Source of the DNA: Candidatus Saccharimonadota bacterium
GTDB lineage: Bacteria; Bacteroidota; Bacteroidia; Cytophagales; Amoebophilaceae
Length of the DNA: 32,000 nt
Direction: 5' to 3'
Assembly (NCBI RefSeq): GCF_936981045.1
Contig: NZ_OW441264.1
Span: forward strand, 1,050,001 to 1,082,000
Positions within the stretch are counted from its first letter, which is position 1, and each line of letters starts with the position of its first letter. Below the pieces are notes generated by a model, which made no database searches, was not told the origin of the DNA, and was given only the letters and a program-made list of their open reading frames with translations. A program made the position numbers and the translations under genes. Below, in pieces: positions 3,311-26,886 of the stretch.

Positions 3311-4768
3311 ATGCATGAGATTATAAAAGAGCAGTATCAAGTCGTTATTGGGTTAGAGATCCATATTCAATTGCTTACCGATAGCAAAATGTTTTCCTCA
3401 GATAGAGCTGAATATGGTGCCCTTCCTAACACGAACCTGAGTCCTATAACATTGGCCTACCCTGGTGCGTTGCCTAGGGTAAATAAAAAAGCATTTGACT
3501 ATGCTATAAAGTTAGGATTAGCGTGTGCATCCACCATTACAGATTTAAACTTTTTTGCAAGAAAAAGCTATTTCTATCCAGATTTACCCAAAGGCTTTCA
3601 AATTACACAAGATACCACCCCTATTTGCCGAGGTGGATTTGTAACCATTTATTCTAATGGGGGGGGGGGGAAAAAAATTCCACTGATTCGAATGCACTTA
3701 GAAGAAGACACAGGTAAATCTTTACATGGTATAGTGGAGGATATTACTTTATTGGATTATAACCGAGCAGGTACCCCTTTATTAGAGTTGGTAACAGCTC
3801 CAGAGATCACCACAGGAGCGGAAGCCTATCAATTTTTAGCTGAAATCCGGAAATTGCTTCGCTATTTAGACATCTGTGACGGTAATATGGAAGAGGCTTC
3901 TTTGCGTTGTGATGCCAATATTTCAGTAGCATCCAAAGGATCTCAGCGCCTTGGCACTAGAGTAGAGGTTAAAAATATGAATTCTATGCGCAACGTTCAG
4001 CTGGCCATAGCCTATGAGATCGATCGACAAATCGCACGATTAGAAGCAGGTGAATCAGTGATTGCAGAAACCAGAAATTTTCAAGCTGCTTCAGGGGAAA
4101 CGGTTAGCCTTCGTGCCAAAGAAACAGCCAGTGAGTACCGTTATTTCCCAGAGCCAGATATTCCCCCTATATGGGTTTCGCAGGAATGGATAGAAAGCAT
4201 TCGCAAGACCATGCCTTTATTGCCAAGAGCCTATTTCAAAAAATTTATAGAAGAATATGGTCTTTCGCACTATACCGCTTCTGTTCTTACTGAAAATAAA
4301 GCCTTTGCCATGTTATTTGATGCGCTATGCCAGCATACCACTTACTATACAGCTGCAGCCAATTGGTTGCTGGGCCCTGTCAAAGGCTATCTTAATGAGC
4401 TATCTCTTTCCTTGGAAGATTTTCCCCTTACGATAGACCGTTTCGTTGCACTGATCACATTAGTAGAAAGTGGCATGGTTAGTTTTTCCGTTGCGGCCAG
4501 CCAAATCTTTCCCCTATTGCTACAACAATTAGATATAACACCTATGGAACTGGCAAAAAAGATAGACCTGATACAGGACAGTGATGAAGCCAACTTAAAA
4601 GCACTGGTTACAGAAGTATTAGCAGCCTATCCAGACAAAGTAGAAGCATATAAAAATGGCAAGTCAGGGCTACTGGCCATGTTTATGGGAGAAATTATGA
4701 AAAAGAGCCAGGGAAAAGCCAACGCACCACTGGTAAGTAAGTTATTAGAAGAAGCTTTAAATAATTAG
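3311..4768 (+). CDS. gatB: Asp-tRNA(Asn)/Glu-tRNA(Gln) amidotransferase subunit B
   Basis: VIGLEIHIQL, HLEEDTGKS, DYNRAGTPLLELV, RCDANISV and a C-terminal GatB/YqeY tail are all present at full length (485 aa). Confidence 0.95.
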   Translation: MHEIIKEQYQVVIGLEIHIQLLTDSKMFSSDRAEYGALPNTNLSPITLAYPGALPRVNKKAFDYAIKLGLACASTITDLNFFARKSYFYPDLPKGFQITQDTTPICRGGFVTIYSNGGGGKKIPLIRMHLEEDTGKSLHGIVEDITLLDYNRAGTPLLELVTAPEITTGAEAYQFLAEIRKLLRYLDICDGNMEEASLRCDANISVASKGSQRLGTRVEVKNMNSMRNVQLAIAYEIDRQIARLEAGESVIAETRNFQAASGETVSLRAKETASEYRYFPEPDIPPIWVSQEWIESIRKTMPLLPRAYFKKFIEEYGLSHYTASVLTENKAFAMLFDALCQHTTYYTAAANWLLGPVKGYLNELSLSLEDFPLTIDRFVALITLVESGMVSFSVAASQIFPLLLQQLDITPMELAKKIDLIQDSDEANLKALVTEVLAAYPDKVEAYKNGKSGLLAMFMGEIMKKSQGKANAPLVSKLLEEALNN

Positions 4769-18106: not shown

Positions 18107-21100
18107 ATGAATATTCAAGAAAAGCTTAACATTTTATTTGCCGGAAGAGGCACTTGCCACACTGAACGATTACTGCCTGAATTGGTAGAAAATAACCTAT
18201 TGATTAGTGATAGACAATTTAGTGATCACCTTCGATTCCTCTATTTATACACCGACTTACTAGCCTACTATGACAACAATAATCAACGCATAGATCAAAA
18301 TGTCTGGCGAAAGTTTTTAGAGCAGGATGATACCGTTATACGGTCTCTAATTCTACACACCAATATCGATACTTTAAAAAAAAGTATCCATAAACATTTT
18401 TTAACACTACGCAAGAATGCTACAGGGATTTCAGATACCCACTCTATGAATACTATCTTGGTAGTGGCTCAAGAATTAATCATATTGTTGGATTATTGGT
18501 ATAAGAATTTGTCTAATGAAGATGTGGTGCGCGCAAAATTAGATGCCATTATACATGAAGAAATCAATACCAATATCAGTAAAATATATAAGGTTCTACA
18601 ACAGCATCGTAAAGCCAGTTCTATGCAACCTTTTATAAACTTTTCTGTTTTTCTCTATCAGAAGTGTCATAACGCTTCCTTATGGCGATTAAGAACCGAT
18701 TTAATTTATGATGAAATCAATGGTACAGAACCTAATGATGAACAAGTGATCGATATCTTTGATGATTTTTTTGATGCTGTTTTTAATACTATTTATAAGT
18801 TAAAGGAGCTATCTGCTAGTGATTATTTTGATACCCTTTCCTCTCAAAATAAAGAACCACATGTGGCACTTTTGATCGCTTTTCTACAGCTACTTCAGTA
18901 TGCAGATGCGCATCTTAATTATATTCCACAAAGAACACTAGATCACTATTATAGACATGTACTAAAATTTAATAATAATCCTTCCATGCCGGATCAGGCT
19001 TATGTCCATTTTTTGCTTAGTCCTAATCATCCCTTTGCTTTTGTACGAGAGGGGACTCTTTTAGTTGCAAAACATCCAGTTAATGGGGAGGATATTTTAT
19101 TTGAAACACAAAGAAGTATAACGGTTAATAAGGCTAAGATTGCTCAGATTAATACCCTATTGATTACTAAAAAGTTTGATCAAGAAGGTTATAAAACAGT
19201 TGAAATATCTACTACTACCTATGATGGAAAGCTACTAAAAGCGCTTCCTTTTCAGTTGTTCCCTACGCCAAACAATCATGAAATAGTCAAAACACAGTCG
19301 AACGAACAATTGGCCGTATTAGTAGGCTCACCATTATTTTTCCTTTCTGAAGGTATGCGTACCATTTATGTAAAATGGAAATTTACCTTTGAATCCTTTC
19401 AGGTATTAATCAATCGTAACCCAAATAAGAAGATTCCTACTGCAAAGTTTTTAAAACAAGTGGCAGGTATGCTGTATACCATGTCACAGATACAAATTAC
19501 TACTAAAGATGGATGGTTAAGCATACCAGAAGCGTCTGTAACATTGGAATTTATTGATGAAGCGCGTTGCCTACATATGACTATATCTTTAAATACAGCA
19601 GTACCTCCAATAGAAATGCTGCCTCCTGGATACAAGGGTGAAGTAATGAATCCTGGTACCCCTGCCGTATCTGTTGGCCTACGTAATGAAACATCACTTA
19701 CTGGCTTGTATCTCTTAAACGGTTTATTGCTTGAAACAATAGATCTAAAGGTTAGTGTGCAGGGGTATCGTGGATTAGTGCTTCAGAATCAACTCGGTAT
19801 TATTGATAATAGTCAAATTTTTGAACCTTTTGGTCCATTAGCCAAACTGGACAGTAGTTTTTATATAGGTAGTGGAGAAATTTTCTCTAAGAACCTAACT
19901 GATTTAAAAATACATATCAAATGGGATAGCATTCCTACCGTAGAAGGGGGCTTTAAGGCTTATTATGATGCTTATCCTACCAAGGTAAATAACCATGACT
20001 TCAACGTAAATATTGCTTACTTAAATCATCAGCATTGGAATCCATTTTATGCCCAAAAGAGACAAACTGTACCTCTTTTTCAGGTTACAAAAAGTAACCA
20101 AGGTAGTGAGCAATTGGATTGCCTTAGAACCATTAGTGATATTGACGTAGCTGCATTACGGGTCACTAAATCAAACCATCCATTAGATGTTTCCGTCTAT
20201 GACCCTAAAACAGTAGCTGGCTTTTTAAAATTACAATTATGTGCACCAGAACAAGCCTTTGGCCATGCCATTTACCCCAGCTTGATGAGCAGTGTACTAG
20301 TTAAAAATGCTCAGAAAAAGGAAAACGAAGCTATAACTGTATTGAATGAGCCCTACACCCCTCGTATCAAATCCATTACGGTTGATTACGAGGCAGAGGA
20401 GTCTATGGTATTAACGTCCCCTCCTGGGGAAGAGGAAGAAAAGTACTTAAACAGCTTTTTTCATATTTCTTCTTTTGGCTATTTAAAGACATTTCCCAGC
20501 AAGTTAGCTACTCCAGCTACATTGTTGCCATTGGTAGAACAGAAACAATCATTTATAGCTTTTGGCATAGCATATCTAAATAGCACCCATCTGTTTATGC
20601 ATGTAGCTATTGGTGAAAACAACCCAGATCAAGAAACCCAGCGACCAAAATGGTTTTATTTGTCTGAGAATGTTTGGTTACCGTTTGAGGAGGCAATTGT
20701 TGTAGATGGCACCAATGGATTATCTAAATCTGGTATTATAATTTTTGATTTATCTAATTTACCCGGCCAGGTTAATGGCAACAATACCCGTATGACCCCA
20801 GGATTAACCTGGGTTAAAGCACAATTTATGGATAAAAAAGGCGCATTGCCTACTATAGTTGGGGTCTATACGCAAGCAGTTGCTGTCTCAAGGGTTATGG
20901 ATAAAAATGGTGTTTTTTCTGCTCCGGTACTACCTGCAAAAGCAATTCAAGAACTTCAGGATCCTATAGAGGGTATTGAATGGGTCCAACAACCTTTTCA
21001 AACCTTTGGTGGAAGGCAGTTCGAAAATCATCAAGCTTTTTACAGACGGGTGAGTGAGCGCTTAAGACATAAAAATAGAGCCATATCGGTGTGGGATTAT

Positions 21101-21883
21101 GAACGAATGGTTCTTGAAAGATTTCCAGAAATTTTCAAGGTAAAATGTATTAACCATACATCAAAAAGCACAAATAATATGGTCAATCCTGGCCATATAA
21201 CCCTTGTGGTCATGGCTAAAACAGATCCTAGTCTAGGTATGCCTTTCGTTAGTAGACAGCTGTTAACTGAAATTAAAACTTATATCCAAAGTGTAAGTAC
21301 ACCATTTATAAAATGTGAAGTAATAAATCCTGTTTATGAAGATGTTAAAGTTAACGTTACCGTTAAGTTCAAACCGGGATATGAAAAAGGATTATTCCTA
21401 AACTTGCTATACCAGGATTTACATAACTTTTTTTCTCCATGGATATTTAATCCATCAGCGGATGTCCAGTTGGGTGGGAATATACCTACTTCTAAAATTA
21501 TAGACTTCATTAATAACCGTTATTATGTAGAAGGCATAGGAAATTTTTCTATATTAAAGTATTCTGGTAAGCCCCCAGACTTAAAGCTAGATAAGGTGAC
21601 AACCTATGATAGTCATTTATTTGCCGGGTATCCGTGGTCTGTTATGGTTTCTTCAAAAAATCATAAGATGTCTGTTGTGGATAAATTCGATGCTGCTGTC
21701 AAATTACGTCATGGTAGTATAGGCGATATGGCTATTTCTGAAGATTTTATAGTAGGTCCATGGGAGTATCCTAAGGAAGAGGAATCTACACCATGCGTGG
21801 ATAAAGATGCAGCCATACCAAGTTTAGCAGAATACTGTTTAATCACTAAAAAATATATTAGCACCGATCATGGCAATCACTAG
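18107..21883 (+). CDS. large contractile-injection-system baseplate wedge protein, Baseplate_J/gp6-like (Afp11/Pvc11/Cis11-like) with a long unassigned N-terminal region
   Basis: Uninterrupted 1258-aa ORF. The block RHKNRAISVWDYERMVLERFPEIFKVKCI...NPGHITLVVMAKTD (about 21060-21240) matches my recollection of the RAVTxxDYExLxLxxPxV ... GxVxVVVxP signature of putative baseplate assembly proteins (TIGR02243/Baseplate_J type) of Afp/PVC-like systems. That it is coding is near certain; the functional call is moderate. Confidence 0.55.
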   Translation: MNIQEKLNILFAGRGTCHTERLLPELVENNLLISDRQFSDHLRFLYLYTDLLAYYDNNNQRIDQNVWRKFLEQDDTVIRSLILHTNIDTLKKSIHKHFLTLRKNATGISDTHSMNTILVVAQELIILLDYWYKNLSNEDVVRAKLDAIIHEEINTNISKIYKVLQQHRKASSMQPFINFSVFLYQKCHNASLWRLRTDLIYDEINGTEPNDEQVIDIFDDFFDAVFNTIYKLKELSASDYFDTLSSQNKEPHVALLIAFLQLLQYADAHLNYIPQRTLDHYYRHVLKFNNNPSMPDQAYVHFLLSPNHPFAFVREGTLLVAKHPVNGEDILFETQRSITVNKAKIAQINTLLITKKFDQEGYKTVEISTTTYDGKLLKALPFQLFPTPNNHEIVKTQSNEQLAVLVGSPLFFLSEGMRTIYVKWKFTFESFQVLINRNPNKKIPTAKFLKQVAGMLYTMSQIQITTKDGWLSIPEASVTLEFIDEARCLHMTISLNTAVPPIEMLPPGYKGEVMNPGTPAVSVGLRNETSLTGLYLLNGLLLETIDLKVSVQGYRGLVLQNQLGIIDNSQIFEPFGPLAKLDSSFYIGSGEIFSKNLTDLKIHIKWDSIPTVEGGFKAYYDAYPTKVNNHDFNVNIAYLNHQHWNPFYAQKRQTVPLFQVTKSNQGSEQLDCLRTISDIDVAALRVTKSNHPLDVSVYDPKTVAGFLKLQLCAPEQAFGHAIYPSLMSSVLVKNAQKKENEAITVLNEPYTPRIKSITVDYEAEESMVLTSPPGEEEEKYLNSFFHISSFGYLKTFPSKLATPATLLPLVEQKQSFIAFGIAYLNSTHLFMHVAIGENNPDQETQRPKWFYLSENVWLPFEEAIVVDGTNGLSKSGIIIFDLSNLPGQVNGNNTRMTPGLTWVKAQFMDKKGALPTIVGVYTQAVAVSRVMDKNGVFSAPVLPAKAIQELQDPIEGIEWVQQPFQTFGGRQFENHQAFYRRVSERLRHKNRAISVWDYERMVLERFPEIFKVKCINHTSKSTNNMVNPGHITLVVMAKTDPSLGMPFVSRQLLTEIKTYIQSVSTPFIKCEVINPVYEDVKVNVTVKFKPGYEKGLFLNLLYQDLHNFFSPWIFNPSADVQLGGNIPTSKIIDFINNRYYVEGIGNFSILKYSGKPPDLKLDKVTTYDSHLFAGYPWSVMVSSKNHKMSVVDKFDAAVKLRHGSIGDMAISEDFIVGPWEYPKEEESTPCVDKDAAIPSLAEYCLITKKYISTDHGNH

Positions 21884-22610
21884 TAGAGAGGCACTAAAGA
21901 AAAGCTTTGAAAAAGGATCTATCCCTACCCAACGTGATTTTGAGGATTTGATAGACTCAATGTTTCACAAACAAGATGATAAGATTATTTCTCAGGATCA
22001 TGGCTTAAGTTTATCTCCTAAAGGGAGCTCCGCTAAGTTGATAACGTTTTTCAATAATTTGAATGATTTTAAACCTACTTGGAGTATTGAACAATATCCT
22101 AAAAACACGCCAAATTTTGGATTTAATCTTGTGGATAAGCAAGGAGAGAGTAAGCTGCTTATTCAAACAAATGGATATGTTGGTATAGGTACTACCAATC
22201 CATTCGAAAGATTAACCGTAAATGGTAACATCAGCATACATGGACGTAGGGGCGCTTATGCTGCTGGTACAGTCCCCGGTGATGGTAATTGGTATAATAT
22301 TACGCCTCCATTAAATGCATGCCATGCATTTGAAGTAATTGCTAAAATTGGTAAACAGGGGCGTGGGTTATATGCTATGACCCACGCTATAGCACTGAGT
22401 ACATTTGGAGATTCCAATAATAAGATTAATACTGTAAAGGCCTATTATGGCAGTTTCAGAAATAAAATTAACCTTCGCTGGACGGGCGATACCTTTAATT
22501 ACACGTTGCAAATAAGAACACAACGTGATTATGGAGAAAATAGTATGATTAAATATTATGTGACCAATTTATGGTGGGAAGAAGAAGAGCATGAGGCCGT
22601 ACATCAATAA
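21870..22610 (+). CDS. tail-fibre-like / baseplate-attached protein (short fibre)
   Basis: Overlaps the upstream gene by 14 nt, which suggests translational coupling. The N-terminal KKSFEKGSIPTQRDFEDLIDS motif and NGYVGIGTTNPFERLTVNGNISIHG are, from memory, recurrent motifs of phage and CIS tail-fibre proteins in Bacteroidota. Confidence 0.5.
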   Translation: MAITSREALKKSFEKGSIPTQRDFEDLIDSMFHKQDDKIISQDHGLSLSPKGSSAKLITFFNNLNDFKPTWSIEQYPKNTPNFGFNLVDKQGESKLLIQTNGYVGIGTTNPFERLTVNGNISIHGRRGAYAAGTVPGDGNWYNITPPLNACHAFEVIAKIGKQGRGLYAMTHAIALSTFGDSNNKINTVKAYYGSFRNKINLRWTGDTFNYTLQIRTQRDYGENSMIKYYVTNLWWEEEEHEAVHQ

Positions 22611-22643: not shown

Positions 22644-22770
22644 AAAGGCATTTGTATGCTACTTTTTTCTTGACAAAGAACAAAAAATAAATCCTTAATG
22701 TAAAAAACTGTTGCAAGTCTACCCAGAAGGCTGGAAAATCAGAACCCGCCGAACGGCCCCCGTGTCTACC
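22644..22770 (+). repeat. intergenic repeat family, copy C1 (degenerate)
   Basis: aaaggcatttgtatgctacttttttcttgacaaag...ctggaaaatcagaacccgccgaacggccccc aligns with C2 and with the reverse complement of C3. The head motif is itself duplicated just upstream (22627-22645). Confidence 0.6.
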
Positions 22771-23209: not shown

Positions 23210-23219
23210 ACAATGCAGT

Positions 23220-23370
23220 CATTTATATGCTACTTTTTGCTGGATCAAAAATTAGCTAAAAGATCAAGCCCTATGCAAGAATTTTCTGACAAGCTGTCCT
23301 TAAAGTTGGAAAATCAAAAGTCGCCCCGGGGCCCCATTAAACTGGTTTTCTACTTATCTTTAAGGATAAC
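23220..23370 (+). repeat. intergenic repeat family, copy C2, with palindrome GCCCCGGGGCCCC
   Basis: About 75-80% identity by eye to the reverse complement of 24628-24780 over ~150 nt. The palindrome is at 23323-23335. The 86-aa track ORF across it is probably spurious. Confidence 0.65.
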
Positions 23371-23487
23371 CTTCCTACTGGCAATTTTTACAGAGGATAT
23401 TTTTCTTGTTTTTACGCAGTGTGGCCAGGTAGCTGAATCAGTACAAAACCACTTGCCTAAACAGATGCCTTAAAGTTATCATTTGAA

Positions 23488-24609
23488 ATGCAATTTGCAG
23501 AGATACCTAAGCACCATGCTTTTAAAAACACTTTAATAAGAATGGCGGTTACAGGTAAGGTGGCTCATGCACAGCTTTTTGCAGGTCCTGCTGGTTCTGC
23601 AAGTCTTGCTTTAGCATTAGCTTTTGCTACTTATTTAAATTGCAGTGGCCGCCAGGAAGCTGATGCCTGTGGGAATTGTTTTTCTTGTGCGAGCATGGCG
23701 CAGTTTACCCATCCAGATTTGCAACTCGTATTTCCTAAAAAGGCGAGTAGTGCTGTTTCGGAAACGCAATCAACCTATTTAGAAGCATTCCGTAATTGCC
23801 TTAAGGAAAATCCTTTTTTGACCCTAGAGGAGTGGGTTAGTGCCATGCATTATGATCGTAAACAGTGCCAAATTAGTAGACAAGAGGTCAGTAAGATTAT
23901 CCAACAACTTAGCTTAAAACCTTTTATGGGGCCCTATAAAATCGTCTGCATATGGCTACCAGAATATCTTCATCATACAGCGGCTAATGCACTGTTGAAA
24001 ACCCTAGAAGAGCCACCTATAGATACTGTCTTTTTGTTGGTCAGTTCCAATAGAGACAAAATTTTATCCACCATTAGGTCCCGCAGTCAACAGCACACCA
24101 TTCCTCCGTGTTCCGAAGAAGCTATTCAGCAGGTGCTGCAGCATAAATATAGAGACTTAGACGTGCATCGATGCAAAGAAATCACATTTTTGGCTCAAGG
24201 AAATCTGTCTAAAGCTTTTCAATTGATCAACCAAGGCGTTGAGGATAATTTTGAACGTTTTAGCCATTGGATGCGTAGTTGCTATAGTGGTGATTTGATT
24301 AAGTTGGTGGAACAGTCTGAAACATTTTACAAGCTATCTGTTGATACACAAAAAAGTTTTTTTACTTACGCACTACAACTGACCAGGGTTACTTTATTAA
24401 GCAAGTTGGAGTGCCCCCTTCTGCCAATACATTTAACCGCTGAGGAAGCGTTTAGCAAAAAATTTGGCCTTAATGTGACCATGAGTCAACTAAAAGATAT
24501 TATAGCAGAATTGGCTCAGGCCTATGCTTATTTAGAACGAAATGCCAATGCAAAAATGGTTTATGCCCATGCCTCTATTCAAATCGTAAATATTTTTGGT
24601 TCTGTGTAG
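23488..24609 (+). CDS. holB: DNA polymerase III delta' subunit
   Basis: AHAQLFAGPAGSASLALA (degenerate P-loop), the Zn module CSGRQEADACGNCFSC, HPDL, LLKTLEEPP and SRSQ are the clamp-loader delta' pattern. Confidence 0.85.
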   Translation: MQFAEIPKHHAFKNTLIRMAVTGKVAHAQLFAGPAGSASLALALAFATYLNCSGRQEADACGNCFSCASMAQFTHPDLQLVFPKKASSAVSETQSTYLEAFRNCLKENPFLTLEEWVSAMHYDRKQCQISRQEVSKIIQQLSLKPFMGPYKIVCIWLPEYLHHTAANALLKTLEEPPIDTVFLLVSSNRDKILSTIRSRSQQHTIPPCSEEAIQQVLQHKYRDLDVHRCKEITFLAQGNLSKAFQLINQGVEDNFERFSHWMRSCYSGDLIKLVEQSETFYKLSVDTQKSFFTYALQLTRVTLLSKLECPLLPIHLTAEEAFSKKFGLNVTMSQLKDIIAELAQAYAYLERNANAKMVYAHASIQIVNIFGSV

Positions 24610-24627
24610 CCTTTAGAAAGGCTACAC
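24604..24627. terminator. perfect 11-bp inverted repeat (hairpin) overlapping the holB stop codon; possible terminator
   Basis: gtgtagccttt-ag-aaaggctacac read directly from the sequence. No flanking U-tract on either strand, so intrinsic-terminator function is uncertain. Confidence 0.3.
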
Positions 24628-24780
24628 TTAGAAAGGCATAGAAAATCAATTTAATGGGGCCCCGGGGCGGCTGCTGATTTTCCAGCTTTAAGGGAACACT
24701 TTCAGCAACTTTTTGCACAGGACTTGATTTTTTGCATACTTCTTTATCAAGAAAAAAGTGTGATATAAATTCCTTTTTTA
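24628..24780 (-). repeat. intergenic repeat family, copy C3 (inverted relative to C2), with palindrome GGGGCCCCGGGGC
   Basis: The reverse complement aligns with C2 (..tcaagtcctgtgcaaaaagttgctgaaagtgttcccttaaagctggaaaatcagcagccgccccggggccccattaaattgattttctat). The palindrome is at 24657-24669. Confidence 0.65.
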
Positions 24781-24792
24781 TAAGCCCTTCCA

Positions 24793-26886
24793 CTAGCATA
24801 ACCAAAAATTAATATGTCGTTTGTCCAAATCGCAATTTTTGACTTTGACCTTTACGATATCCCCTAATCGGTAACATTTTTTAGTGTGTTTTCCAATTAC
24901 TTGAAAGTTGTTTTCTTTAAAGGTATAGCTATCATCAGTAAGGTCTGATAAGCGCACCATACCTTCACAGCCATTAGATAGGATTTCTATGTAGATATTC
25001 CATTCGGTTAGGCCGCTGATGATGCCTTCAAATATTTCGTCTTTTAGGTTTTGTATAAACTCTACTTGCTTATACTTTATAGATGCCCTTTCTGCATTTG
25101 CAGCAAGGTATTCTCGTTCTACAGCATATTGACATTTTTTTTCATAGAATGCTACATCATAGATGCGTTCACCTTTTAAATATTTTTTCAAAAGACGGTG
25201 TACCAATACGTCTGAGTATCTTCTAATCGGGGAAGTAAAATGGGTATAATGTGCAAAGGCCAATGCAAAGTGCGGATTGGGTTTTGTAGTGTAGAGCGCC
25301 TTGGCCATAGACCGAATGGCTAGTGATTGTATAATATTCTCTTCTTGCTTGCCCTGAATGGCCCGTTCTAGATCATGCATGGCTTTATATATAGGTGCTG
25401 TATTTATTTTATAGCCTAGTTGAATTACAAATAAAAAGAATTCATCTAACTTATCTGGATCCGGATGGTCATGGGTTCTATATATAAAAGTAGGTCCTAG
25501 TTTTTCCTGTTTTTGTTTTAGTTTGGCTACATAGGTGGCTACTTCTTTATTAGCCAGTAACATAAACTCCTCAATAAGCTTATGCGCATCTGTACGGACC
25601 TTTGGCACCATATCTAGTGGTTTGCCATTGGCATCCAGTTCGAACACTAGTTCTCTGGTTTCAAAATTAATCGCTCCTTTTTGTAAGCGTTTTGCTCGAA
25701 GCTGTTTGGCTAGGTTATTCAATACTGTAAGCGCTTGGTAACAATCTCTCGTTTGTGCATCTATTGCCGCTTGGGCTTCTTCGTAAGTAAATCTTTTATT
25801 AGAATAAATAATGGTTTCTCCCAACCATTTGTCATAAATTTTTCCTTGTGCATCCAATTCGAAAATTGCTGAAAAGGTTAATTTAGTTTCGTTTGGGCGT
25901 AAAGAACATAGTTCATTAGAAAGTAGTTCTGGAAGCATCGGAATACAACGATCTACTAGATAAACAGAGGTATTGCGCGCATAGGCTTCCCGATCTAGGG
26001 GACTGTCTGGTAAAACATAATAACTTACGTCTGCAATATGAATCCCTACTTGATGGGCGCCATTGGCTAATGGTTGGTAGGAGAGGGCATCATCAAAATC
26101 CTTGGCGTCTACTGGGTCTATGGTAAAGGTAGGTATATGCCGAAGGTCTCTTCTTTTACTTATTTCCGCTTCAGTAATAACCGTAGGTATGTTTTTGGTA
26201 TGTTCAAGAACACTTTCTGGAAAGGTATCCTTTAAACCAAACTCAGCCATAATGGCATGCATCTCTACCTCATGTAGACCAGCCTCACCTAGATGTTGCA
26301 CTACTTTACCCGTCAATTGATTATGGGCATTAGGAAAAGAAGTGAACGCAATGACCACTTTATCATTTTCTTGAAGCATAGAGCTATTTTCCTGTTCTAA
26401 TAAAACGGTGTAAGCAGTGCGTTTTTGTTGAACTATGGCTTGGGGTTGGTTTCCAGAAACAGTGATGCGCCCAATTACAGATGCCGTGTTGCGTTCAATA
26501 ATTTCCACTACCACACCCTCTGGTCGCTTACCACGTCGGCTTGGAAACAAGCAAACTTTAACCAAATCTTTGTCTAATGCAGATAGCAGGTCTTTTTGAC
26601 GTACCAATACATCTTTGGGTTGATCCGGTGCCACAATATAAGCATATTCAGCACGCACATAATCTACTCGGCCTGTGATGTAAATAGGTGCGCCAGCATG
26701 TAGATAACCTCCTTTGCTTACTTTTTTAATGGTACCCTCATGTAAAAGATCTAATAAAGCCTTTTTCACTTTTGCTCTATCTGATTTGCCTGTGACCTTT
26801 AGCACCCTATAGAGTTGTTGTAGGGTGTAGGCTTGATTTGGATCCTGTTGTAAGGTAGTAACAATAGGTGTAGTATAGTTTTGCAC
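24793..26886 (-). CDS. rnr: ribonuclease R (RNB-family 3'-5' exoribonuclease)
   Basis: N-terminal HTH/cold-shock-like region, an RNB domain (TIDPVDAKDFDDALS, VYLVDRCIPMLPE, FTSPIRRYSDVLVHR) and a C-terminal S1 domain. GTG start at 26886. Confidence 0.95.
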   Translation of the reverse strand: MQNYTTPIVTTLQQDPNQAYTLQQLYRVLKVTGKSDRAKVKKALLDLLHEGTIKKVSKGGYLHAGAPIYITGRVDYVRAEYAYIVAPDQPKDVLVRQKDLLSALDKDLVKVCLFPSRRGKRPEGVVVEIIERNTASVIGRITVSGNQPQAIVQQKRTAYTVLLEQENSSMLQENDKVVIAFTSFPNAHNQLTGKVVQHLGEAGLHEVEMHAIMAEFGLKDTFPESVLEHTKNIPTVITEAEISKRRDLRHIPTFTIDPVDAKDFDDALSYQPLANGAHQVGIHIADVSYYVLPDSPLDREAYARNTSVYLVDRCIPMLPELLSNELCSLRPNETKLTFSAIFELDAQGKIYDKWLGETIIYSNKRFTYEEAQAAIDAQTRDCYQALTVLNNLAKQLRAKRLQKGAINFETRELVFELDANGKPLDMVPKVRTDAHKLIEEFMLLANKEVATYVAKLKQKQEKLGPTFIYRTHDHPDPDKLDEFFLFVIQLGYKINTAPIYKAMHDLERAIQGKQEENIIQSLAIRSMAKALYTTKPNPHFALAFAHYTHFTSPIRRYSDVLVHRLLKKYLKGERIYDVAFYEKKCQYAVEREYLAANAERASIKYKQVEFIQNLKDEIFEGIISGLTEWNIYIEILSNGCEGMVRLSDLTDDSYTFKENNFQVIGKHTKKCYRLGDIVKVKVKNCDLDKRHINFWLC

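Follow-up and report, generated by a model that had tools for sequence, protein, structure and literature searches.

A 32,000-nucleotide stretch of contig NZ_OW441264.1 (assembly GCF_936981045.1, positions 1,050,001 to 1,082,000 of the forward strand), hereafter called the window, was investigated for two overlapping open reading frames (ORFs) that encode a baseplate protein and a short fibre protein of a contractile injection system (CIS). The window, with a GC content of ~37%, is part of a Cardinium (Amoebophilaceae) genome. ORF1 (18107-21883, plus strand) encodes 1258 aa and is cis11, the gene of an Afp11-like, gp6-type baseplate wedge protein with an N-terminal extension, orthologous to CAHE_0037 and Aasi_0557. 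ORF2 (21870-22610, plus strand), whose start overlaps the stop region of ORF1 by 14 nt, encodes a Cis13-like short fibre or "adhesin" of 246 aa, orthologous to CAHE_0036 and Aasi_0556. The coordinates and the overlap are those given by a first-pass annotation of this DNA, which had also suspected an intracellular symbiont, and the closest proteins are indeed those of Cardinium endosymbionts. As that annotation had likewise noticed, the neighbours of the pair are housekeeping genes and insertion sequence (IS) debris, and no other CIS structural gene is present in the window, i.e. in the ~18 kb upstream and the ~9 kb downstream of the pair.

The Pfam model of the Baseplate_J core (PF04865) matched residues 942-1109 of ORF1 (20930-21433, plus strand) with an E-value of 1.7e-11 and 44.3 bits, above its cut-off of 21.1. 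This upholds the gp6/Baseplate_J/Afp11-type assignment that had been proposed from the motifs RAISVWDYERMVLERFPEIFKVKCI (from residue 991) and NPGHITLVVMAKTD (from residue 1027), both of which are present. TIGR02243, the second profile that had been suggested as a check, aligned to residues 942-1095 only with 31.9 bits and did not reach its equivalog cut-off of 155.8, but this model describes a shorter subfamily and the miss leaves the Cis11 assignment untouched. The ~950 N-terminal residues, which had been thought to match nothing, align along their length to two Cis11 proteins of solved structure. In a phmmer search of solved structures, residues 17-423, 545-732 and 745-1149 of ORF1 align to the Anabaena Cis11 protein All3317 (7b5h, E 4.7e-85), while residues 248-611 and 712-1200 correspond to residues 110-479 and 550-1042 of Alg11 (7aeb, E 2.1e-82); 9rce is a further match. 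In the same search the shorter Pvc11 and Afp11 match the C-terminal third of ORF1 only, the Baseplate_J region aligning to Afp11 residues 254-587 (E 4.2e-22) and Pvc11 residues 374-686 (E 3e-33). Over the whole protein, ORF1 shares 77-89% identity with Cardinium "baseplate J/gp47 family" proteins and 41% with the Amoebophilus sp. protein, the next closest relatives of the pair after Cardinium being those of other Amoebophilaceae and of Amoebophilus sp. 36-38.

Cis11 exceeds Afp11 and Pvc11 by three domains, of which one contacts Cis12, one forms a cage around the spike and the third, a C-terminal extension, touches the Cis13 trimer (PMC8894136). The cage of Alg11 corresponds to its domain IV (residues 278-643; PMC8894135). 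The known Cis11 extension, spike cage included, makes up the long N-terminus of ORF1. Extrapolation from the Alg11 alignment offsets and the published domain IV would place the cage of the Cardinium protein approximately at residues ~416-805 (19352-20521, plus strand). The C-terminal extension, residues ~1150-1258 (21554-21880, plus strand), into which the Alg11 alignment reaches as far as residue 1200, is by analogy a candidate docking site for the trimer of the Cis13-like protein. The hydropathy check revealed no hydrophobic segment in Cis11.

ORF2 was not matched by any Pfam or NCBIfam model. It belongs to a family of ~245 residues that is well conserved and widespread in Bacteroidota under the NCBI name "adhesin", with 88% identity between ORF2 and the Cardinium hertigii "adhesin" and 68% between ORF2 and its Amoebophilus sp. 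counterpart. A profile built from 45 members of this family matched All3316, the Cis13 protein of the Anabaena thylakoid-anchored CIS (tCIS), over residues 1-40 with an E-value of 1.5e-5. This segment, two short helices at 21870-21989 (plus strand), is the N-terminal baseplate-adaptor motif of the Cis13-like protein, and it presents additional weak matches to AfpX13 residues 38-66 (E 0.05-0.09) and to the tail fibre 9qgo. In the tCIS, the Cis13 trimer attaches to the baseplate by its N-terminal domains, and the C-terminal extension of Cis11 is in contact with this trimer (PMC8894136). The central "GxVGIGTxxPxxxLxVxG" segment of the family resembles the beta-helix repeats of the Bdellovibrio fibre Bd2133 (profile E 2.2e-11).

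The AlphaFold2 monomer model of ORF2, with a mean predicted local distance difference test (pLDDT) score of 81, exhibits helices at residues 6-14 and 21-31, a short beta segment and a confident beta-rich C-terminal domain. Foldseek searches of the PDB with this model gave Bdellovibrio trimeric fibres (E 1e-5), phage tailspikes and T4 gp9 as the best matches, and those of BFVD gave phage tail fibres and virion proteins, with 115 matches at E<=1e-3. Against trimeric fibres and tailspikes the probability is 1.0 at a TM-score of ~0.3, a single chain of an intertwined trimer being compared. The tail-fibre identity that had been read from the motifs PTQRDFEDLIDS (from residue 19) and GIGTTNPFERLTVNG (from residue 105), both present, is thus borne out by the Cis13 N-terminal profile match and by the fibre-like Foldseek matches. 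ORF2 has no hydrophobic segment, as no 19-residue Kyte-Doolittle window exceeds 1.6 (maximum 0.54), and it is therefore not a membrane-inserting Cis13 of the tCIS type. ORF2 is a Cis13-type baseplate-docking short fibre whose distal domain is different.

The pair corresponds to two genes of the antifeeding prophage (AFP)-like secretion system of Cardinium and Amoebophilus, a type VI secretion system of subtype iv (T6SSiv), of which 16 genes spread over five genome regions have been described (Penz 2012, PMC3486910). Table S5 of that paper lists Aasi_0557/CAHE_0037 as Baseplate_J, Afp11-like, phage baseplate, and Aasi_0556/CAHE_0036 as Afp13-like, virus fibre protein, with identities between cEper1 and A. 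asiaticus of 42% and 64%, respectively. CAHE_0037/0036 are separate from the sheath-tube block CAHE_0456-0463 and from the VgrG-PAAR-gp25-Afp12 block CAHE_0760-0763, and fibril arrays were seen in Cardinium by electron microscopy (PMC3486910). The system is divided into three blocks in Amoebophilus and into up to six in Cardinium, the flanking synteny of blocks 1 and 2 being conserved (Brown 2018, PMC6232779), and the remaining T6SSiv genes are documented in the genomes of cEper1, cBtQ1 and cPpe (PMC3486910, PMC6232779). Expression values in cEper1 are ~1345 for CAHE_0037, which is among the highly expressed genes, and ~610 for CAHE_0036 (Mann 2017, PMC5698495). Aasi_0556 has already been named Cis13 of the T6SSiv in a 2025 metagenomic survey, with homologues in Bacteroidales injection systems. 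The Alg11-type extension and cage have been reported in the Amoebophilus T6SSiv, where the apparatus is fixed to the inner membrane through a fibre-like binding site at the cage (PMC8894135). According to papers that cite the cryo-electron tomography, six anchoring densities and a cage are found at the inner membrane in the T6SSiv, the densities being described for Amoebophilus and Aureispira; as relayed by PMC8894135, an ixotrophy preprint and PMC12210884, the tomography of membrane-anchored arrays concerns Amoebophilus only.

The orthology to Aasi_0557 and Aasi_0556 is seen in the full-length identities of 41% and 68% to the syntenic pair of Amoebophilus sp. 36-38. We conclude, with a probability of roughly 0.9, that the pair represents cis11 and the cis13-like gene of the Cardinium T6SSiv, whose cluster has been broken up by rearrangement and whose products assemble in trans. 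A module serving a CIS encoded elsewhere, one of the options considered in the first-pass annotation, was the correct one, since CAHE_0037/0036 belong to the dispersed T6SSiv (PMC3486910, PMC6232779). The description as an orphan, or as a new baseplate architecture, has to be given up in favour of a published Afp11-like/Afp13-like pair of a system with genes split over five or six genome regions. Publications from 2010-2012 onwards already cover the pair, its position away from the main cluster and its expression; the extended architecture of Cis11 has been known since 2022.

The reconstruction of the locus history draws on 22 loci that the ORF2 family (17-sequence alignment) retrieved from representative bacterial and archaeal genomes, and on individual look-ups. 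In the free-living Mangrovivirga cuniculi (L001) the order is sheath, tube, DUF5908, CIS_tube, VgrG, PAAR, gp25, cis11 (1239 aa), cis13-like (247 aa), a 64-aa ORF, cis12 (935 aa) and tape measure, and its cis11 product is 27% identical to ORF1 over the full length. The same core order is found in a Cyclobacteriaceae metagenome-assembled genome (MAG; L020) and in a cyanobacterial MAG (L021), the pair standing between gp25 and cis12 in full clusters. The placement of cis11 between gp25 and cis12, a feature of CIS clusters, is thus seen in these three free-living loci and not in the window. The ancestral arrangement is gp25-cis11-cis13-cis12-tape measure, which is intact in free-living Bacteroidota. 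The cis13-like gene directly follows cis11 in the same order in 20 related loci. A small ORF of 48-64 aa with the core ...EVNxIIKALSExPFxEVYELxGKIxxQ... follows the cis13-like gene in Mangrovivirga, in loci of the Amoebophilus clade and in the cyanobacterial CIS cluster (L001 10744-10938; L002 14788-14958; L012 ~10775-10897; L021 ~4529-4654) and was not found beside the pair in Cardinium.

The Amoebophilaceae-type loci come from nine Cardinium genomes (in one of which, L010, the contig carries no more of cis11 than its 3' end), two Amoebophilaceae MAGs, Amoebophilus sp., a 1.45-Mb "Roseivirga" MAG and two Cytophagales MAGs. In every one of these loci the pair stands alone among housekeeping genes. 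Within Cardinium, window included, rpmE and holB lie downstream of it, and the gene order at the cBtQ1 locus (L007) is that of the window. One uncultured Cytophagales MAG (L017, 6319-10708) holds a divergent detached pair (29% and 45% identity for cis11 and cis13) between mutS/ABC-F and rho/hemN; another (L015, 6271-6987) holds a lone cis13-like gene, flanked on one side by gatB and a Mur-ligase gene and on the other by gyrB, and cis11 is absent from the 6 kb around it. As the pair is detached in every Amoebophilaceae-type locus, the detachment is an ancient rearrangement inherited across the family and is not peculiar to this genome. The distance of the pair from the sheath, tube and spike genes goes back to the genome rearrangement that broke the ancestral cluster.

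Selection on the pair was estimated from pairwise ratios of nonsynonymous to synonymous substitution (dN/dS) between the window and seven relatives. The ratios are 0.07-0.19 for cis11 and 0.07-0.13 for the cis13-like gene, those of the adjacent housekeeping gene holB being higher (0.16-0.24). Among the pair and the divergent membrane-protein gene taken up below, ORF2 is conserved best, with 68% identity to Amoebophilus compared to 41% for Cis11. A diversifying receptor-binding cassette would show the opposite pattern, and the one observed is in keeping with a structural role within the cell that produces the system.

Taken together with the structures of relatives, these data suggest how the two products may act. 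Cis11 would, with Cis12 encoded elsewhere, probably form the six baseplate wedges, and its long N-terminal extension would probably build a cage around the VgrG/PAAR spike. The Cis13-like protein would probably form trimers, the N-terminal two-helix motif of which may dock onto Cis11, giving six short fibre-like connectors per baseplate that, as in Amoebophilus-type systems, would face the inner membrane of the own cell and not the target cell. The six trimers are, we infer, obvious candidates for the six anchoring densities of the T6SSiv. In the IS-rich Amoebophilaceae symbionts, genome rearrangement split the ancestral contiguous cluster, and what the pair encodes would still join the rest of the machine in trans.

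Four points weigh against this assignment. The Cis13-like protein does not carry the transmembrane helix that anchors Anabaena Cis13. Its predicted model is a monomer and the Foldseek TM-scores are low (0.25-0.34), as would be expected for one intertwined chain. The window covers 32 kb, and the location of sheath, tube, spike, gp25 and cis12 elsewhere in the genome is taken from the other Cardinium genomes in the literature. Finally, the structural and interaction support comes from relatives and not from Cardinium itself, the cage and the membrane-anchored arrays having been described in such relatives and the transcription in strain cEper1, so that the contact between Cis11 and the Cis13-like protein and their anchoring role in Cardinium are put forward by analogy.

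A third gene may bear on the anchoring. Divergent from cis11, and separated from it by 133 nt, lies the gene of a 187-aa polytopic membrane protein (17410-17973, minus strand), the orthologue of CAHE_0038, which is only weakly assigned to the system. An IS6-family fragment lies directly past the 3' end of this gene. The intergenic region, inspected by eye, contains a TAnnTTTG motif in near-matches only, which carry no evidential weight. The protein has three to four hydrophobic segments (maximum 19-residue Kyte-Doolittle value of 2.66) and a signal-like N-terminus, is not matched by Pfam and shares 29% identity with the product of the ORF that occupies the corresponding place in Amoebophilus sp. 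The family profile retrieved 31 representatives among 1.84 billion proteins; homologues are found only in Cardinium/Amoebophilaceae and are absent from the complete clusters of free-living relatives. In L017, a 229-aa ORF divergent from cis11 was considered as a further member and rejected, as it gave no match to the hidden Markov model.

A membrane segment is lacking in both Cis11 and the Cis13-like protein, which makes the 187-aa protein a candidate anchor, and one could imagine a three-gene anchoring module in which it would be the T6SSiv inner-membrane receptor for the helix-less Cis13-like trimers or for the Cis11 cage. We regard this as improbable. It would explain the six "anchor" densities in Amoebophilus and why the gene has stayed by cis11 while the rest of the cluster was scattered: the order membrane protein, cis11, cis13-like recurs in each of the 13 other Amoebophilaceae-type genomes for which upstream sequence exists, and also on contig L029, and in Cardinium the gene has kept its place despite abutting IS fragments and despite the loss of the linkage to thrS that the Amoebophilus clade shows. 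Its restriction to the clade, its dN/dS of 0.12-0.22, which indicates purifying selection, and the transcription of CAHE_0038 in cEper1 are also consistent with such a role. However, the expression of CAHE_0038 is about ten-fold below that of cis11, and the most distant family members (L030, L026) are surrounded by housekeeping genes, cis11 being absent from their vicinity. The neighbours of the gene in the Amoebophilus clade are thrS on one side and cis11 on the other, and in L012 an APH kinase gene intervenes before cis11, so that an inherited neighbourhood alone would explain its placement. Moreover, the AlphaFold2 model is poor (pLDDT 62). If true, the anchor would be the functional equivalent of the C-terminal membrane helix of Anabaena Cis13 or of Streptomyces CisA.

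An exchangeable specificity cassette, i.e. a satellite receptor-binding module retargeting a CIS encoded elsewhere in the manner of phage or PVC tail-fibre cassettes, had also been envisaged in the first-pass annotation. The fibre-like fold and the repeats of ORF2, which resemble Bdellovibrio adhesive fibres and phage tail fibres, and the NCBI family name "adhesin" would be in keeping with it, but it is very unlikely, as ORF2 is under purifying selection and more conserved than ORF1, the opposite of a diversifying receptor-binding protein. Furthermore, Cis11 is a core wedge protein and not an accessory one, both genes are transcribed in cEper1, the 22 distinct loci belong to 22 different assemblies with no second copy per genome in that scan of representative genomes, and the characterised relative, as far as the papers citing the tomography describe it, works from inside the cell against its own membrane. 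That the pair might be a decaying relic of a lost phage-tail-like element without current function, the other possibility raised earlier, has hardly any likelihood, since, despite the IS copies and the broken group II intron around the pair and the abundance of pseudogenes in symbiont genomes, both ORFs and their orthologues in more than 13 genomes of deep divergence are full-length and intact, the genes are transcribed in cEper1, cis11 highly, and the dN/dS of 0.07-0.19 rules a relic out.

The rest of the window consists largely of housekeeping ORFs (tgt, gatB, argS, udg, rpsF/rpsR/rplI, cdaA, tpiA, rbfA, rpmE, holB, RNase R and holA), with further ORFs for an ABC ATPase, a SpoU methylase, a ubiquitin C-terminal hydrolase (UCH) and a transketolase-like subunit. 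The PHROGs scan gave generic baseplate-wedge and tail-fibre matches only, and the Rfam and tRNA scans of the window found nothing. The hydrolase, a 368-aa protein (9807-10913, minus strand) with a eukaryote-type UCH/USP domain (PF00443, E 1.2e-27), is likely a host-interaction effector and plausibly a T6SSiv substrate. The mobile debris comprises IS6-family (DDE_Tnp_IS240) transposase sequences, one intact copy and several fragments of 83-97% mutual identity (14705-15512, 17064-17265, 26923-27835 and 29044-29275), a truncated Mutator-family transposase of 216 aa (29981-30631, minus strand; profile positions 42-247 of 379) and a broken group II intron reverse transcriptase/maturase (15574-16951, plus strand). 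A frameshift divides the latter into two overlapping ORFs (RVT_1; RVT_1 and GIIM), which makes it a probable pseudogene; none of the Rfam matches to group II intron RNA reached the gathering threshold. Additionally, an intergenic repeat of ~160 nt flanks rpmE and holB in three copies of 74-75% identity, one of them inverted (22699-22760, 23221-23382 and 24609-24770). It has no Rfam match and generates spurious ORFs of 76-86 aa (23213-23473, plus strand; 24575-24805, minus strand).

For Cardinium cEper1, no dedicated protein secretion system other than the T6SSiv has been reported; cBtQ1 also has a putative type I system. The baseplate genes matter biologically because the T6SSiv is the presumed delivery route for the effectors behind cytoplasmic incompatibility. 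To what was published, the present analysis adds an explicit link of the ORF2 family to the baseplate-binding N-terminus of a structurally solved Cis13, the ancestral gene order reconstructed from free-living Bacteroidota, and the observation that conservation is higher in ORF2 than in Cis11, a point in favour of a structural or anchoring role over target recognition. It also adds, at low probability, the 187-aa protein as a candidate membrane anchor.

Among the known systems, the mosaic adhesive trimer fibres of Bdellovibrio (Bd2133, Bd2439 and Bd1334; 8ond, 8ol4 and 8oml) share with ORF2 the fibre fold and the beta-helix repeat "n-G-x-V-G-I-G-T-x-x-P-x-x-x-L-x-V-x-G", in one to two repeats only; these are predator surface fibres from an unrelated context and not CIS baseplate parts. 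Serratia Afp11 and Photorhabdus Pvc11 share the Baseplate_J core with ORF1 but, at 607 and 728 aa, are without the cage and the other extensions, and Afp13 and Pvc13 are long, adenovirus-shaft-like, target-recognising fibres of extracellular systems encoded in a single operon, ORF2 having in common with AfpX13 the weak N-terminal adaptor motif. The AlgoCIS protein Alg11 (7aeb, PMC8894135) is likewise a six-domain Cis11 with a cage-forming insertion, whereas AlgoCIS is extracellular, has Alg19 fibres bound to Alg12 and is encoded by contiguous genes; none of the Alg proteins matched ORF2. In the Anabaena tCIS, All3317 (7b5h, PMC8894136) is homologous to ORF1 over nearly its full length, including the domains missing in Afp11 and Pvc11, All3316 shares the N-terminal baseplate-binding motif of ORF2, and cis13 adjoins cis11 in both. 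Anabaena Cis13, however, has 154 aa, its end being a triple helix with a transmembrane helix that inserts into the thylakoid membrane, whereas the Cardinium protein of 246 aa is predicted to be a beta-rich fibre with a head and has no hydrophobic segment. The closest counterparts are Aasi_0557/0556 of Amoebophilus asiaticus and CAHE_0037/0036 of C. hertigii cEper1, which have the same sizes (~1260 and 246 aa), the same order and the same detachment from the main cluster, the downstream rpmE-holB synteny being common to the window and other Cardinium. Compared with the cBtQ1 and C. hertigii loci there is strain-level divergence only, with 77-78% identity for Cis11 and 88-89% for the Cis13-like protein, and the architecture is the same.

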